Shown: in pieces, positions 668 to 57,960 of the stretch
How positions within the stretch are numbered: position 1 is the stretch's first letter
Layout of the letters: each line of letters starts with the position of its first letter
Source: Escherichia phage vB_Eco_NicPhage
Strand: one strand, 5' to 3'
Sequence record: OY726582
DNA length: 64,000 nt
The notes under the pieces: generated by a model
Seen by the model: only the letters and a program-made list of their open reading frames with translations
Databases searched by the model: none
Told to the model about the DNA's origin: nothing
Made by a program: the position numbers and the translations under genes

Positions 668-710
668 TCGATAGGTCTATAGTATCATATCCTAAAAGCA
701 TGTACACTAC
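668..710 (-). promoter_or_regulatory. T4-type early promoter cassette (variant -35 GTGTACA)
   Basis: Minus strand GTGTACA ... TACTATAGACCTATC upstream of gene ending at 640; member of repeated cassette family. Confidence 0.5.
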
Positions 711-7459: not shown

Positions 7460-7510
7460 TTCTCCTCTAGTTGACAGGTCTATAGTAACACAACTAGAGG
7501 AGAAGTAAAC
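7460..7510 (-). promoter_or_regulatory. regB early promoter with anti-SD/SD inverted repeat
   Basis: GTTTAC-TTCTCCTCTAG-(23 bp containing TACTATAGAC)-CTAGAGGAGAA-ATCAAAATG; perfect 11-bp inverted repeat. Confidence 0.6.
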
Positions 7511-13597: not shown

Positions 13598-13640
13598 GTT
13601 TTGATAGGTCTATAGTATCAACAACTACAGACCTTGTAAA
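13598..13640 (-). promoter_or_regulatory. early promoter cassette (GATAGGTCTATAGTATCA variant)
   Basis: GTTTAC -35 and TACTATAGACC -10 region directly upstream of 13373..13573. Confidence 0.55.
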
Positions 13641-17997: not shown

Positions 17998-18040
17998 TTT
18001 GATAGGTCTATAGTAACACCGTCCTTGGTGTTTGTACATC
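17998..18040 (-). promoter_or_regulatory. early promoter cassette (variant -35)
   Basis: TGTACAAAC ... GTGTTACTATAGACCTATC upstream of 17750..17977. Confidence 0.5.
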
Positions 18041-18561: not shown

Positions 18562-18602
18562 TTGATAGGTCTATAGTATCATACCTCAAGGAGAAGTAAA
18601 CA
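18562..18602 (-). promoter_or_regulatory. early promoter cassette
   Basis: GTTTAC-TTCTCCTTGAGG...GATACTATAGACCTATC upstream of 18039..18542. Confidence 0.55.
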
Positions 18603-34112: not shown

Positions 34113-35109
34113 TTCAAGTGTTATCTATCGTGCAATAGTTACATCAAAATTTAGAACAGAGAAAATGCTGAATTTTTATAATTCAGTTGGGGATGGAGAC
34201 GATAAGAACTCCATTTATATTACGTTTGGACGTTCAGAGCCTTGGGCGTCAAATGAAAATGAGGTGGGCTTCGCCCCACCTTATCCTACAGATTCTGTTC
34301 TTGGTGTTACTGATATGTGGACCCATATGATGGGTACCGTTAAAGTTTTACCTTCAATGTTAGATTCTGTTATTCCTAGGCGTGATTGGGGAGATGTGCG
34401 ATATCCAGACCCTTACACGTTTAGAATTAACGATATAGTCGCATGTAATACTGCTCCGTACAACGCGACAGAAGTTGGAGCCGGTTGGTTAATTTACCGT
34501 TGTTTAGACGTCCCTGACGTAGGGCTCTGTTCAATAGAATCTTTAGATAATAAAGATGAATGTCTTAAATTAGGTGGTAAATGGACCCCGTCTGTTCGTT
34601 CTATGTCTCCTCCTGAAGGCAGAGGCGATGCTAATGGGGTTATCGAAACCGGTGATGGATATATTTGGGAATACCTTTATGAGATTCCTGCCGATGTGTC
34701 AATTAACCGTTGCACTAACGAATATCTTGTAGTTCCATGGCCGGAAGAAATTAAAGAAGACCCCACCCGTTGGGGATATGAAAATAACTTAACTTGGCAA
34801 CAAGATGACTACGGCTTGATTTACCGTGTTAAAGCTAATACGATGCGCTTTAAAGCATATTTTGATTCGGTTTATTTCCCTGAGGCAGCTTTGCCTGGTA
34901 ACAAGGGGTTTAGACAGATATCAATTATCGCAAACCCATTAGAAGCTAAGAAAAATCCAAATGACCCTAATGTTAAAGCAGAAAAGGATTATTACGACCC
35001 TAGAGACCTACAACGTCATTCTGGTGAAATGATTTATATGGAAAACCGCCCACCTGTTATTATGGCAATGGACCAAACAGAAGAAATTAACATTTTGTTT
35101 ATGTTTTAA
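34105..35109 (+). CDS. 8: baseplate wedge protein gp8
   Basis: 334 aa as in T4; synteny. Confidence 0.9.
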   Translation: MNDSSVIYRAIVTSKFRTEKMLNFYNSVGDGDDKNSIYITFGRSEPWASNENEVGFAPPYPTDSVLGVTDMWTHMMGTVKVLPSMLDSVIPRRDWGDVRYPDPYTFRINDIVACNTAPYNATEVGAGWLIYRCLDVPDVGLCSIESLDNKDECLKLGGKWTPSVRSMSPPEGRGDANGVIETGDGYIWEYLYEIPADVSINRCTNEYLVVPWPEEIKEDPTRWGYENNLTWQQDDYGLIYRVKANTMRFKAYFDSVYFPEAALPGNKGFRQISIIANPLEAKKNPNDPNVKAEKDYYDPRDLQRHSGEMIYMENRPPVIMAMDQTEEINILFMF

Positions 35110-35110
35110 T

Positions 35111-35138
35111 TAGGGAGCCTTCGGGCTCCCATTTTTGT
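35111..35138 (+). terminator. rho-independent terminator after gene 8
   Basis: GGGAGCC-TTCG-GGCTCCC + ATTTTTG. Confidence 0.7.
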
Positions 35139-53652: not shown

Positions 53653-55221
53653 ATGACTACTATCAAAACTAAAGCTCAGCTCGTAGACAAATGGAAAGAA
53701 CTGCTGGAAGGTGAAGGCCTGCCGGAAATCGCTAATAGCAAGCAGGCTATTATCGCTAAAATCTTCGAAAACCAGGAAAAAGATTTCGAAGTATCCCCTG
53801 AATATAAAGACGAGAAAATCGCTCAGGCATTTGGTTCTTTCTTGACCGAAGCTGAAATTGGTGGTGACCATGGTTATAATGCTCAGAACATCGCAGCAGG
53901 TCAAACCTCTGGTGCAGTAACCCAAATTGGGCCGGCAGTTATGGGTATGGTTCGTCGTGCTATTCCTAATCTAATCGCTTTTGATATTTGTGGTGTTCAG
54001 CCTATGAACAGCCCGACCGGTCAGGTATTTGCTCTCCGTGCAGTATATGGTAAAGACCCTATCGCTGCTGGCGCTAAAGAAGCTTTCCATCCGATGTATG
54101 CCCCAGACGCGATGTTCTCTGGTCAGGGTGCTGCTAAGAAATTCCCAGCTCTGGCTGCTGACACTACTACTGTTGTAGGTGATATCTATACTCACTTCTT
54201 CCAAGAAACTGGTACTGTATATCTGCAAGCTTCTGCTGTCGTAACACTTGATTCTGGTGCAACTGATGCAGCTAAATTAGATGCAGAAGTTAAGAAACAA
54301 ATGGAAGCTGGTGCACTGGTAGAAATCGCTGAAGGTATGGCTACTTCTATCGCTGAACTCCAGGAAGGTTTCAACGGTTCTACCGATAACCCATGGAATG
54401 AAATGGGCTTCCGTATCGATAAACAAGTTATCGAAGCTAAATCTCGCCAGCTGAAAGCTGCTTACTCTATCGAATTAGCACAAGACCTCCGTGCAGTACA
54501 CGGTATGGATGCTGATGCTGAACTGAGCGGTATTCTGGCTACAGAAATTATGCTAGAAATCAACCGTGAAGTTGTTGATTGGATTAACTACTCAGCACAG
54601 GTTGGTAAATCTGGTATGACCCTGACTCCGGGTTCTAAAGCTGGTGTATTTGACTTCCAGGACCCGATTGATATCCGTGGTGCTCGTTGGGCCGGTGAAA
54701 GCTTTAAATCTCTGTTGTTCCAGATTGATAAAGAAGCAGTTGAAATTGCTCGTCAAACCGGTCGTGGTGAAGGTAACTTCATTATCGCTTCCCGTAACGT
54801 AGTTAACGTACTGGCTTCAGTTGATACTGGTATTTCTTACGCTGCACAGGGCCTGGCTTCTGGTTTTAATACCGACACTACTAAGTCTGTATTTGCCGGT
54901 GTACTTGGTGGTAAATACCGCGTATACATCGACCAGTATGCTAAACAGGATTACTTCACCGTTGGTTACAAAGGCGCTAACGAAATGGATGCAGGTATTT
55001 ACTATGCTCCTTACGTTGCACTTACCCCGCTGCGTGGTTCCGATCCTAAGAACTTCCAGCCGGTAATGGGCTTTAAAACTCGTTACGGTATCGGTGTTAA
55101 CCCGTTTGCTGAAAGTTCCCTGCAGGCTCCAGGTGCTCGCATCCAGTCCGGTATGCCATCTATCCTGAACAGCCTTGGTAAGAACGCTTACTTCCGCCGT
55201 GTATATGTAAAAGGCATCTAA
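53653..55221 (+). CDS. 23: major capsid protein gp23
   Basis: 522 aa; codon usage typical of a highly expressed gene; terminator downstream. Confidence 0.95.
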   Translation: MTTIKTKAQLVDKWKELLEGEGLPEIANSKQAIIAKIFENQEKDFEVSPEYKDEKIAQAFGSFLTEAEIGGDHGYNAQNIAAGQTSGAVTQIGPAVMGMVRRAIPNLIAFDICGVQPMNSPTGQVFALRAVYGKDPIAAGAKEAFHPMYAPDAMFSGQGAAKKFPALAADTTTVVGDIYTHFFQETGTVYLQASAVVTLDSGATDAAKLDAEVKKQMEAGALVEIAEGMATSIAELQEGFNGSTDNPWNEMGFRIDKQVIEAKSRQLKAAYSIELAQDLRAVHGMDADAELSGILATEIMLEINREVVDWINYSAQVGKSGMTLTPGSKAGVFDFQDPIDIRGARWAGESFKSLLFQIDKEAVEIARQTGRGEGNFIIASRNVVNVLASVDTGISYAAQGLASGFNTDTTKSVFAGVLGGKYRVYIDQYAKQDYFTVGYKGANEMDAGIYYAPYVALTPLRGSDPKNFQPVMGFKTRYGIGVNPFAESSLQAPGARIQSGMPSILNSLGKNAYFRRVYVKGI

Positions 55222-55242
55222 TCTTAATTGATTAAATCTTAT

Positions 55243-55276
55243 TTTGGGAGACTTCGGTCTCCCATTTTTGGTTTTA
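55243..55276 (+). terminator. rho-independent terminator after gene 23
   Basis: TGGGAGAC-TTCG-GTCTCCCA + TTTTTGGTTTT. Confidence 0.75.
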
Positions 55277-55543
55277 TTTCTGTGCAATTTCGATGTAAGT
55301 TTTCAAAATATTTTGCCAATTAGGCATACCTTCTTGGACATATGCCGGAGAACCATCTTTGTTTTTGAATGATGCAAGTTTATCAGTGGCCCAATAACCT
55401 TTAGCTCGAGCTTCAGAATCAACTTTCATCCATACTTTGTTGAAGGCATTACCATTAACTTTTGCACCATATTTTTCTACTAACTTAACTGCTTCAGCTT
55501 CCAGAACTTTTAAAGTATCTCGTAAGAAACGTGCTTTAGTCAT
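55274..55543 (-). CDS. hypothetical early protein encoded antisense between late genes 23 and 24
   Basis: 89 aa; SD AGAGGAG; own early promoter cassette at 55563..55603; occupies the T4 segD position but has no endonuclease motifs. Confidence 0.55.
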   Translation of the reverse strand: MTKARFLRDTLKVLEAEAVKLVEKYGAKVNGNAFNKVWMKVDSEARAKGYWATDKLASFKNKDGSPAYVQEGMPNWQNILKTYIEIAQK

Positions 55544-55562
55544 TTTGTTTACTCCTCTGTAG

Positions 55563-55603
55563 TTGATAAGTCTATAGTATCACATACTAAATACGTTGTA
55601 AAC
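55563..55603 (-). promoter_or_regulatory. early promoter cassette inside late region
   Basis: GTTTACAACG...GATACTATAGACTTATC upstream of minus-strand ORF 55274..55543. Confidence 0.5.
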
Positions 55604-55609
55604 AATCTT

Positions 55610-55617
55610 TATAAATA
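55610..55617 (+). promoter_or_regulatory. late promoter TATAAATA (gene 24)
   Basis: Exact consensus about 28 nt upstream of gp24 ATG. Confidence 0.65.
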
Positions 55618-55644
55618 ATCTATATCACATAAGGAAAAAATGCA

Positions 55645-56928
55645 ATGAGTAAAATCCAAAAATTATTGCGTGAATCTACAACGTCTACTAGCAACTCAAT
55701 TGGTCGCCCAAATCTCGTTGCTTTGACTCGCGCTACGACTAAATTAGTATATTCTGACATTGTAGCAACACAAAGAACTAATCAACCTGTTGCTGCTTTT
55801 TATGGTATCAAATATCTTAACCCAGATAATGAATTTACATTTAAAACTGGTGCTACTTATGCTGGCGAAGTTGGATATGTAGACCGAGAAAAAATTACTG
55901 AACTCACAGAAGAATCAAAAGTCACACTAAATAAAGGTGATTTTTTCAAATATAATAATATCGTCTATAAAGTGTTAGAAGATACACCATTTGCAGATAT
56001 TCAAGAAAGTGATCTAGAATTAGCTCTTCAGATTGCAGTCGTTCATTTAAAGGTACGGTTATTTTCAGATGCAGCGGTAACAAGCAAATTTGAAAGCTCT
56101 GATAGCGAAATTTCTGATGCAAGATTCCAGATTAATAAATGGCAAACTTCAGTCAAATCTCGTAAACTTAAAACTGGCCTCACGGTTGAATTAGCGCAAG
56201 ATTTGGAAGCGAATGGATTTGATGCCCCTAACTTCTTAGAAGATTTGCTTGCTACTGAAATGGCTGATGAAATTAATAAAGATATTCTTCAGTCTTTAAT
56301 TACTGTATCGAAACGTTATAAAGTTACTGGAATTACTGACACCGGATTTATTGACTTGAGCTATGCATCCGCTCCAGAAGCAGGTCGTTCATTATATCGA
56401 ATGGTGTGTGAAATGGTATCACACATTCAAAAAGAGACAACTTATACTGCAACGTTTTGTGTAGCCTCAGCTCGTGCAGCTGCTATTCTTGCTGCTTCTG
56501 GTTGGTTAAAACATAAGCCAGAAGATGACAAGTATCTTTCACAAAATGCTTATGGATTCTTGGCAAATGGATTACCTCTTTACTGCGATACCAACAGTCC
56601 GTTAGATTATGTTATTGTGGGTGTTGTAGAAAATATCGGCGAAAAAGAAATTGTAGGGTCCATCTTTTATGCTCCATACACTGAAGGAGTAGATTTAGAT
56701 GACCCGGAACATGTCGGTGCATTTAAAGTTGTAGTTGATCCGGAAAGTTTGCAACCGTCTATCGGATTATTGGTTAGATATGCTTTATCAGCAAATCCTT
56801 ACACAGTAGCAAAAGACGAAAAAGAAGCGAGAATAATTGATGGTGGGGACATGGATAAAATGGCAGGACGTTCAGACTTGTCTGTTTTACTCGGTGTTAA
56901 ATTGCCTAAAATTATTATAGATGAATAA
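55645..56928 (+). CDS. 24: capsid vertex protein gp24
   Basis: 427 aa as in T4; paralog of gp23; late promoter upstream. Confidence 0.95.
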   Translation: MSKIQKLLRESTTSTSNSIGRPNLVALTRATTKLVYSDIVATQRTNQPVAAFYGIKYLNPDNEFTFKTGATYAGEVGYVDREKITELTEESKVTLNKGDFFKYNNIVYKVLEDTPFADIQESDLELALQIAVVHLKVRLFSDAAVTSKFESSDSEISDARFQINKWQTSVKSRKLKTGLTVELAQDLEANGFDAPNFLEDLLATEMADEINKDILQSLITVSKRYKVTGITDTGFIDLSYASAPEAGRSLYRMVCEMVSHIQKETTYTATFCVASARAAAILAASGWLKHKPEDDKYLSQNAYGFLANGLPLYCDTNSPLDYVIVGVVENIGEKEIVGSIFYAPYTEGVDLDDPEHVGAFKVVVDPESLQPSIGLLVRYALSANPYTVAKDEKEARIIDGGDMDKMAGRSDLSVLLGVKLPKIIIDE

Positions 56929-56961: not shown

Positions 56962-57960
56962 TTATGATACTAATTCAATCCATGCAGGACGCAGAACATC
57001 TTGCACCATTCGGACTAATTCTTTCTTAACAAGATTCGGATTATCAGATGATGTTAATACAATACCTTCACGAGAAGTTTCTTCCAGAATATCTTGAACA
57101 GTCAATCCCATCACTTTGCCAAAATCTTTTGGCGTTACAGTCCCAATCTTAGAAATAACATTATTAACACGATTTAATGTAACATAACAAGCTAGAACAT
57201 CAAGCAAGTTTTTGTCAATTTCGGTTAATGGAACCTGAGTTTTAATAGGCTTATCAGACTTTTTCTTTTCACTGAATTTAGAGTTCTTGCACTTAATAGC
57301 TACACGAGTACCGTTTGGCAGCCATTTAGGAAAACAAGGCTTCAGAACATAACCTTCTGCTGTATTATCGCCAATAACATTAGCATCAAATACACAATTA
57401 TTTGCTTCTACAAGGTCTTCTGACGCAGTAGCATTATAAGCGGCTAAGACAGAATCAAGGTCGTTTGGAATCATGATAAGAGCATCAAATGTGCCACGTC
57501 CAAGCATTGGTGCCATTTTAAAACCGAATTCATTACAGAAATCTTGCATTTCGTAATCGGTCAAATACGTATTATCACCACTTTCTGTATTGATAAGGAT
57601 ATCGAACACATAAAAATCTTTTTCACCGTAGTCAACACCTTTCTGGATTCCACCACCAGCGAATTCACCAAAGACCTGATATGATACAGCTCGAGAACTA
57701 CCCATTACTTCTTGAACGTTTTTAATAGCCTTATCATACTTCTTGAGTACAATTTCATAACCATAAAAATCTTCTGCTGGAAGAATAGGGCCTGTGCGCT
57801 TGGCGCATGTGACGTTGTCACGTTCAATTATTAACGAGAAGTTAGTCCCATGGATTTTCTCACGTGCTACCCAAACACCAGTAGTCAAACCATTAGTGTA
57901 GAGTTTTTCAATAAACTTAGAGTTGTAGTGGTTTTCAAGACTGCTGTATTTCTTAAACAT
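56962..57960 (-). CDS. rnlB: RNA ligase 2
   Basis: 332 aa; near-identity to T4 Rnl2 as recalled ([21 protein letters not shown]...[12 protein letters not shown] with nucleotidyl-transferase motif I Lys). Confidence 0.9.

Follow-up and report, generated by a model that had tools for sequence, protein, structure and literature searches.

The 89-aa open reading frame (ORF) on the minus strand between the genes for the major capsid protein (gene 23) and the capsid vertex protein (gene 24) is under strong purifying selection and is a genuine protein-coding gene. It is very probably a real, early and dispensable accessory gene, and we consider it likely that the best overall explanation of the locus is a self-contained early-gene cassette encoding a dispensable accessory binding protein. 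We conclude that any antisense pairing with the capsid messages is incidental to the position of the cassette. The gene is not new, as it is already in GenBank as a hypothetical protein and its early promoter was predicted for RB69 in 2006. We refer to the whole stretch of DNA that was analysed, 64,000 nucleotides in length, as the window.

Genomic location and identity of the ORF

The ORF is in the cluster of head genes of a T-even phage that resembles RB69 and belongs to the genus Mosigvirus. A 551-nt stretch around it is 99.3–99.8% identical to many Mosigvirus isolates, including p000y, vB_Eco_mar005P1, APCEc01 and PhAPEC2, and the flanking genes were named from PhAPEC2, which is annotated and has 99% identity. 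The features of the locus are listed in Table 1; the initial annotation of an 89-aa minus-strand ORF with a Shine-Dalgarno (SD) sequence and an early promoter in the 23–24 gap is borne out at these positions.

Table 1. Coordinates of the features between and around genes 23 and 24 in the window.
Feature	Position	Strand	Remarks
Gene 23, major capsid protein	53653..55221	+	PhAPEC2 annotation
Gene 23 terminator	55245..55275	.	8-bp GC-rich hairpin 55245-55264 and T-run on + strand
89-aa ORF	55274..55543	-	ATG start; stop codon TAA 55276-55274; 10.1 kDa, pI 9.6
Shine-Dalgarno GAGGAG	55557-55552	-	8 nt before ATG; contains GGAG
T-even early (sigma-70) promoter	55574..55603	-	-35 GTTTACA 55603-55597; TG 55582-55581; -10 TACTAT 55579-55574
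Gene 24 late promoter TATAAATA	55610..55617	+	Predicted start ~55623; RB69 equivalent Pl:109573
Gene 24, capsid vertex protein	55645..56928	+	PhAPEC2 annotation
rnlB	56962-57960	-	PhAPEC2 annotation

Several annotated genomes have the same gene in the same slot and on the same strand, as RB69ORF188c/RB69ORF189c (NP_861878, NP_861879), VR7ORF190c and PhAPEC2_170, the last of which is annotated as 'similar to RB69ORF188c'. The window ORF differs from that of PhAPEC2 by two synonymous and no non-synonymous changes. The RB69 copy is 94% identical to it in nucleotide sequence and those of many Mosigvirus isolates 99–100%. In the RB69 reference a +1 and a -1 indel split the gene into two short ORFs (ORF189c and ORF188c), whereas the window copy is intact, like that of nearly all isolates; the 89-aa ORF is the intact form of RB69ORF188c/189c. 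A homology search assigns the protein over its full length to this RB69ORF188c family, which is PHROG 6003 (unknown function), with residues 1–89 aligning to positions 1–90 of the 90 in the profile (E=2.1e-45).

Searching with the 89-aa protein by tblastn returned 239 phage records, ~120 of them of the Mosigvirus type and ~119 with less than 60% identity. The ORF is intact, with at least 95% amino acid identity, in 117 of the 120 Mosigvirus records; at the DNA level the gene is present in 120 records at nucleotide identities of at least 94%. Copies that are 100% identical in amino acid sequence and labelled as hypothetical protein are found in many Mosigvirus genomes. Paper searches found no literature on RB69ORF188c or on RNA-seq of RB69, and the main text of the PhageExpressionAtlas paper mentions neither RB69 nor Mosigvirus nor other T-even phages. 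The gene is one of many small early T-even ORFs of unknown function, and on its own carries little weight.

Promoter, translation signals and predicted transcript ends

By its sequence, the promoter of the ORF is of the T4-type early form, with GTTTAC(A/T), 17±1 nt, TG and TAnnnT on the early strand. The spacer is 17/18 nt (17 if counted from TTTACA) and the extended -10 is TG-a-TACTAT; the minus-strand start predicted from the position of the -10 is at ~55567. A generic sigma-70 scan of this AT-rich DNA is not above chance (4 sites, with 3.8 expected), and a fixed-spacer pattern GTTTAC...TAYTAT is not significantly enriched. The phage-specific -10/leader motif TAYTATAGACYTATC has six matches in the 64 kb, all on the minus strand, compared with 0.72 expected, and a count of six was reached in none of 100 shuffles. 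All six copies have a GT(T/G)TAC -35, and five of them lead, 34–44 nt past the start of the -10, to an SD and the ATG of an ORF of 30 aa or more; the sixth is at the window edge, where its ORF runs off the end. The promoter of the 89-aa ORF also has TACTATAGACYTATC in common with five other minus-strand sites. Because the site belongs to this phage-specific TAYTATAGACYTATC family, 'early promoter cassette', the term used in the initial annotation, is a fair description.

For RB69, the supplement of Nolan et al. (2006; PMC1524935) gives an early promoter Pe:109605 (109555–109605, minus strand, HMM score 29.9), a late promoter Pl:109573 on the plus strand, and a terminator predicted by TransTerm at 109234–109251 and labelled '23-><-RB69ORF188c'. 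RB69 coordinates are offset by 53,988 nt from those of the window, which puts Pe:109605 at 55567–55617, with its 3' end at the start predicted here. We infer the activity and the timing of the early promoter from the promoter type together with the T4 segD data described below.

The early promoter and the gene 24 late promoter are arranged back-to-back, with the late motif 6 nt from the -35, and the transcripts diverge, so that the predicted early RNA does not cover the leader that gene 24 has when transcribed from its own promoter. At the other end, the stop codon of the ORF is within the T-run of the gene 23 terminator. Read from the minus strand, the terminator hairpin has a folding energy of -13.5 kcal/mol (z=-4.3) and starts 9 nt past the ORF stop; because it is followed by AAAAUAAG, without a U-tract, it is probably a poor terminator on this strand, and some read-through giving RNA antisense to gene 23 is plausible. 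VR20 differs from the window in having a T-run after the hairpin in the minus-strand direction. The hairpin sequence GGGAGACCGAAGTCTCCC is identical in the Mosigvirus, Dhakavirus and metagenome loci. An Rfam search of 55000–55900 gave only chance matches below threshold.

The motif GGAG, contained in the SD, is cut by T4-type RegB nuclease. It is kept in every homologous slot compared, that of T4 segD included, and as a putative RegB target it would allow the message to be shut off quickly, like other early messages.

Selection, distribution and disrupted copies

Within the Dhakavirus alleles, dN/dS by the Nei-Gojobori method is 0.055–0.088 at dS of 0.22–0.48, and more divergent pairs within each allele lineage give 0.12–0.18 at dS of about 2. 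Between clades and genera the synonymous divergence is saturated and dN stays low. These values (dN/dS 0.05–0.18 overall), together with a slot and orientation kept in three T-even genera and a stereotyped early promoter, agree with the earlier suggestion of a small early protein. So do the prediction of Pe:109605 in RB69 and the behavior of T4 segD, which occupies the same slot, has early RNA and makes a detected protein.

Homologs with 31–38% identity are present in the same slot and likewise antisense in Gaprivervirus VR20 and in the Dhakavirus phages WG01 and 04086. Metagenomic T-even contigs with the gene in this slot encode proteins 61% and 70% identical to that of the window, and a further one (P0016) has a protein of the Dhakavirus/Gaprivervirus type with 34% identity. 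A scan of IMG/VR added six loci, all of them Dhakavirus or Gaprivervirus. An exhaustive profile search of 1.84 billion representative proteins gave ten matches, a handful of which are true relatives, and two of these are outside the T-even phages. One (P0018) is encoded on an unclassified phage contig among clustered small ORFs that all point in one direction, one of them similar to T7 gene 0.6; its closest relative, at 61% identity, is the product of a gene in ABPH49, a 150-kb Vequintavirinae phage, where it is likewise among hypothetical genes. The other (P0019) follows the tail-tip gene in a siphovirus contig (L017) with a distant relationship to Serratia phages, where a terminator, TTGACG-17-TG-TATATT and an SD precede the ORF in one unit. 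None of these three contexts is opposite capsid genes. Judged by these occurrences, the gene family has spread horizontally. Two further matches, a protein with nine Big_2 repeats and an LRR (P0017) and a tandem-repeat protein (P0020), are repeat artefacts with false scores, because many weak repeat matches add up, and another (P0021) was set aside as a chimeric-looking fragment.

There are several instances where the reading frame is disrupted. In addition to the split gene in the RB69 reference, phage mogra has a 1-nt deletion in an A-run of the gene, and in 310Ecol104PP a Dhakavirus-type copy is frameshifted after residue 43. Going by these three disrupted copies, all in viable isolates, the gene is dispensable. 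The frameshifts in RB69 and mogra could be sequencing errors, since one is in an A-run and the other in a Sanger record of 2003. Small size, conservation, dispensability, natural knock-outs in RB69 and mogra and a presence in several coliphage lineages that are unrelated make the family a good candidate for accessory-gene screens.

Predicted structure

The AlphaFold2 model of the protein, built with an 11-sequence alignment, has a pLDDT of 87 and a pTM of 0.72, with predicted helices at residues 3–25 and 31–48, a beta-hairpin (56–60/66–70) and a third helix at 76–88. A BFVD homolog, a Dhakavirus member with 31% identity, has the same fold (TM 0.72). Residues K3, F6, G31, N32, N35 and Q70 are invariant across all clades, and L14, L21, N30, A45, S57 and G64 are nearly so. 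There is no indication of a membrane segment in the 89-aa protein.

No homolog of known function was found in Pfam, NCBIfam, PADLOC, the PDB sequences, or the PDB and BFVD folds. The profile search against PDB sequences had no match below E=0.5, Foldseek against the PDB none below E=0.26, the BFVD fold search recovered only the Dhakavirus member of the same family, and NCBIfam and PADLOC gave matches at chance level only. Pfam had no match above cut-off; DUF4859 (17.9 bits, cut-off 22.6) was rejected because the matched part is helical in the confident model. A PHROG match to an 'internal virion protein' family is weak (E=0.09) and not significant. The absence of endonuclease motifs pointed out earlier is consistent with these searches and with a lack of similarity to T4 SegD: BLASTP against SegD aligned only a 17-residue chance match, which places the protein outside the GIY-YIG/Seg group, and a relationship between the two was rejected.

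The 23–24 gap in other T-even phages

In T4 the same slot is occupied by segD. The initial annotation had segD on the plus strand, which is wrong: it is on the minus strand in the RefSeq record, and the review of Edgell et al. (PMC2988022) names it as the only endonuclease gene of T4 to lie antisense to the genes around it, adding that no segD-specific promoter could be found. The T4 locus resembles that of the window in slot and strand, in a homologous promoter-like site (TTTACA-17-TGaTATTAT) and in a GGAG-type SD, and the unit is likewise back-to-back with the TATAAATA of gene 24 and ends at the gene 23 terminator hairpin. In T4 the promoter-like site is on the minus strand, shortly before the segD ATG at coordinate 107232. 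The cargo is different, a 223-aa GIY-YIG endonuclease instead of an 89-aa helical protein, without similarity between them. In every carrier, including T4, the plus-strand TATAAATA of gene 24 is followed 5–6 nt later by (G/A)T(T/G)TACA on the opposite strand, and then by 17–18 nt, a -10, ~20 nt, a GGAG-type SD and an ATG. In T4 omics data segD falls into the early class by its RNA and the middle class by its protein, and SegD peptides are quantified (PMC9697503, supplement files 4–6), from which it follows that in T4 the slot is transcribed early and translated. The shared promoter fits these 2022 data better than the 2010 view of segD as a gene without a promoter of its own.

The slot is empty in most Tequatrovirus phages, and segD is covered by only 53 of 806 matching records. 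One example is T2, in which the 83-nt spacer consists of the terminator hairpin and the late promoter only; as no early promoter is present in this empty slot, the early promoter travels with the cargo. In some phages both types of cargo are present. In LF82-1 a gene for a SegD homolog, which has 57% identity to the T4 protein, comes 4 nt past the small ORF on the same strand, and JM10 and mobillu have such a tandem by annotation. LF82-1 is also mosaic at this locus: the start of gene 24 and the promoter are 95% identical to the window, the ORF is a Dhakavirus allele with 61% nucleotide identity, and the switch point is between the SD and the ATG. This switch, together with a terminator hairpin identical across loci, suggests that the conserved regulatory flanks are exchange points.

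Alternative explanations

An antisense regulator of late capsid messages had been put forward as an alternative or additional role, with the transcript antisense to the gene 24 leader and the 3' end of gene 23. An RNA-level function of this kind, in which the early minus-strand transcript pairs with late or read-through messages of genes 23 and 24 and regulates the capsid genes, would suit a gene lying antisense between two late genes and a hairpin without a minus-strand U-tract, past which early transcripts may continue into antisense of gene 23. A read-through transcript from gene 23 would also be complementary to the entire ORF, and early 'anti-late' RNA is a classical T4 observation, on which paper searches found no literature. 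We nonetheless regard it as very improbable. The predicted start lies beyond the gene 24 late promoter, ~56 nt from the start of gene 24 transcription and pointing away from it, and does not overlap the leader; at the other end the unit stops at the terminator hairpin, downstream of gene 23, and barring read-through does not reach its stop codon at 55221. The amino acid sequence is kept and the synonymous sites drift, contrary to the expectation for an RNA constraint, and with dS at 0.2–0.5 within one genus these sites are free, so that nothing beyond coding constrains the RNA. Some homologs lie at a distance from capsid genes, T2-type phages make capsids without the promoter and cargo, the T4 slot holds an unrelated gene, and early and late transcription are separated in time, with T4 segD RNA being classed as early. 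From position, 3' end, sequence constraint and timing taken together we conclude that any antisense effect is incidental, and the antisense-regulator idea can be dropped.

Three protein-level or null explanations were also considered. A functional tie to a SegD-type homing endonuclease, as partner, immunity factor or landing site, is suggested by segD being in the same slot and strand with a homologous promoter, and by the tandems in some Dhakavirus-type phages; we consider it improbable, as all 120 of the Mosigvirus copies and most of the examined Dhakavirus and Gaprivervirus copies are without an adjoining endonuclease, the distant homologs have no endonuclease neighbour, and the small protein has no similarity to SegD. 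Free-standing endonuclease genes commonly insert in intergenic sites beside unrelated genes (PMC2988022). Even less probable, and on a par with the RNA-level role or slightly below it, is an accessory protein of head morphogenesis, such as an assembly chaperone or internal protein working with genes 23 and 24. The location inside the head gene cluster in three genera is in keeping with this, as would be the match to an internal virion protein family were it significant. However, the promoter and strand are early whereas head genes are late, the PhAPEC2 record marks the neighbours as structural virion proteins and not this ORF, and the distant homologs are in early-type clusters of small genes or after tail genes, not near capsid genes; moreover, viable phages have frameshifted copies, and T4 and T2 lack the gene. 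That the ORF is a chance or decaying frame without function is hardly credible. The frameshifts in RB69, mogra and 310Ecol104PP and the lack of a known function could be read in this way, but the selection analysis effectively refutes it, and the near-uniform Mosigvirus copies, the full-length homologs in three genera and in unrelated phages, and the confident fold prediction are also contrary to it.

A model for the cassette

The explanation that we prefer is that of a self-contained early-gene cassette, in which an early promoter is followed by a leader of 24 nt with a GGAG-type SD and then by the 89-codon ORF; it would have been inserted on the early (minus) strand between the gene 23 terminator and the gene 24 late promoter. 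Within minutes of the onset of infection, transcription by host RNA polymerase would give a monocistronic mRNA of ~320 nt, from ~55567 to the hairpin at 55264–55245. The predicted product is a soluble, basic 10-kDa protein with the order helix, helix, beta-hairpin, helix, and its most likely mode of action would be to bind stoichiometrically to a macromolecule of the host, or possibly of the phage. Q70 and the invariant N-G-N-x-x-N loop at the N-terminal end of helix 2 are the candidate interface. The mechanism itself, binding for host takeover or counter-defence, is a tentative guess, as is the target; it draws on analogy with small T-even early proteins because there is no homolog with known function.

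A broader proposal, which we regard as speculative and on balance unlikely in its entirety, is that the 23–24 gap is a recurrent early-strand cargo slot, seen empty in T2, with the small protein, with the small protein plus SegD, and with SegD alone in T4. Cargo would be swapped through the promoter and terminator flanks. The small protein, with a new type of fold, would act as a horizontally mobile effector that uses its invariant NGNxxN/Q70 patch as the binding site and so neutralises some defence or other factor of the host. If so, this would be an effector common to T-even phages and unrelated phages of Enterobacterales.

Comparison with known cassette systems

The locus is reminiscent of two known arrangements. 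The promoter-early/stem-loop (PeSL) cassettes of T4-type phages (Arbiol et al. 2010, PMC2839356; Comeau et al. 2014, PMC4122927) similarly have a variable ORF between a conserved early promoter and a stem-loop, with exchange at the flanks. The promoter type at the window locus is a repeated one, and the replacement junction in LF82-1 is at the promoter/SD. There are departures from this pattern, in that PeSL stem-loops and promoters form one composite motif between early genes, whereas here the stem-loop does not adjoin the promoter: it is the gene 23 terminator, on the far side of the ORF, and the promoter is next to a late one. The locus also belongs to the core late module and not to a hyperplastic region. 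The second likeness is to the morons of lambdoid phages and other siphoviruses, which have a single ORF with its own promoter and terminator hairpin placed among genes of another transcription class. As with morons, the cassette is absent from relatives of the T2 type, and the homolog in the siphovirus contig is in a terminator-promoter-ORF unit. It differs from them in having no prophage or lysogeny-expressed contexts and in that its promoter is of the phage's own early type.

Organization of the gap between genes 23 and 24 in other phages

The slot between genes 23 and 24 is empty in T2, as in most Tequatrovirus records, and segD is covered in only 53 of 806 matching records. The T2 spacer is just 83 nt long, its only contents are the gene 23 terminator hairpin and the gene 24 late promoter, and the early promoter is absent from it. 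The locus of phage LF82-1 is mosaic. Its gene 24 start and early promoter are of the Mosigvirus type (95% identical to the window), its small ORF is of the Dhakavirus type (61% nucleotide identity), and the two types meet between SD and ATG. A gene for a SegD-like GIY-YIG endonuclease lies on the same strand, 4 nt 3′ of the small ORF.

Two tandem gene 24 paralogs adjoin the small ORF in Gaprivervirus, Dhakavirus and related metagenome phages, whereas the window, T4, LF82-1 and 04086 each have a single gene 24. In 04086 the 'major head protein' is annotated at only 1110 nt, an unannotated gap opens with SegD-like coding sequence, and a 'hypothetical protein' on the opposite strand occupies the expected place of the 5′ part of gene 23. 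This anomaly could reflect an insertion in gene 23, or a problem of annotation or assembly. An unclassified phage contig carrying the homolog P0018 has a stretch of ~81–93 nt with 85–89% identity to unannotated parts of ~84 kb Erwinia phage genomes; ARAGORN found no tRNA in it.

The small gene itself is disrupted in three isolates, RB69, mogra and 310Ecol104PP, and these disruptions could be either genuine or sequencing errors.

Coordinates of features in the window and in comparison loci (L) from other phages and contigs
Feature	Source	Position	Strand	Remark
Mosaic locus	LF82-1, PV648359	L021 2390-3470
Empty slot	T2, PV958097	L024 190-320
Tandem gene 24 paralogs		L002 1-2394; L003 1-2399; L006 1337-3901; L018 1338-3897
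Gene 23 region	04086, OR842557	L004 2767-5083
Unannotated gap	04086	L004 2767-3502
Hypothetical protein	04086	L004 4633-5046	opposite
Erwinia phage-like stretch	Phage contig	L016 4657-4749
Disrupted small gene	RB69, NC_004928	L009 501-770		+1 indel near mismatch cluster; -1 indel ~150 nt further on
Disrupted small gene	mogra	L005 601-869		One A missing from A-run
Disrupted small gene	310Ecol104PP	P0015 (homolog)		Frameshift after residue 43
Early promoter/leader copies	Window	670-684; 7473-7487; 13603-13617; 18001-18015; 18564-18578	minus
Hairpin terminator	Window	35095-35137	plus
Promoter-like site	T4, NC_000866	L023 2734-2790	minus
segD ATG	T4, NC_000866	107232	minus

Predicted regulatory elements in the window and in T4

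The stereotyped early promoter and leader recurs five more times in the window, with the layout GT(T/G)TAC, TACTATAGACCTATC, SD and ATG. Four of these copies are followed by an ORF (≥30 aa) that begins 34–44 nt past the -10; the remaining copy lies at the edge of the window. Elsewhere in the window lies a hairpin terminator, made up of GGGAGCCTTCGGGCTCCC and a T-run, which is similar to that of gene 23 and is directly followed by a late-promoter-like TATAAATA.

According to a 2010 review, a promoter specific to T4 segD could not be identified (PMC2988022). In the T4 omics data of 2022, segD RNA falls in the early class and SegD protein is detected (PMC9697503). Directly 5′ of the segD ATG we note a promoter-like site, TTTACA-17-TGaTATTAT, which is back-to-back with the TATAAATA of gene 24 and is homologous in both sequence and position to the early promoter of the window.
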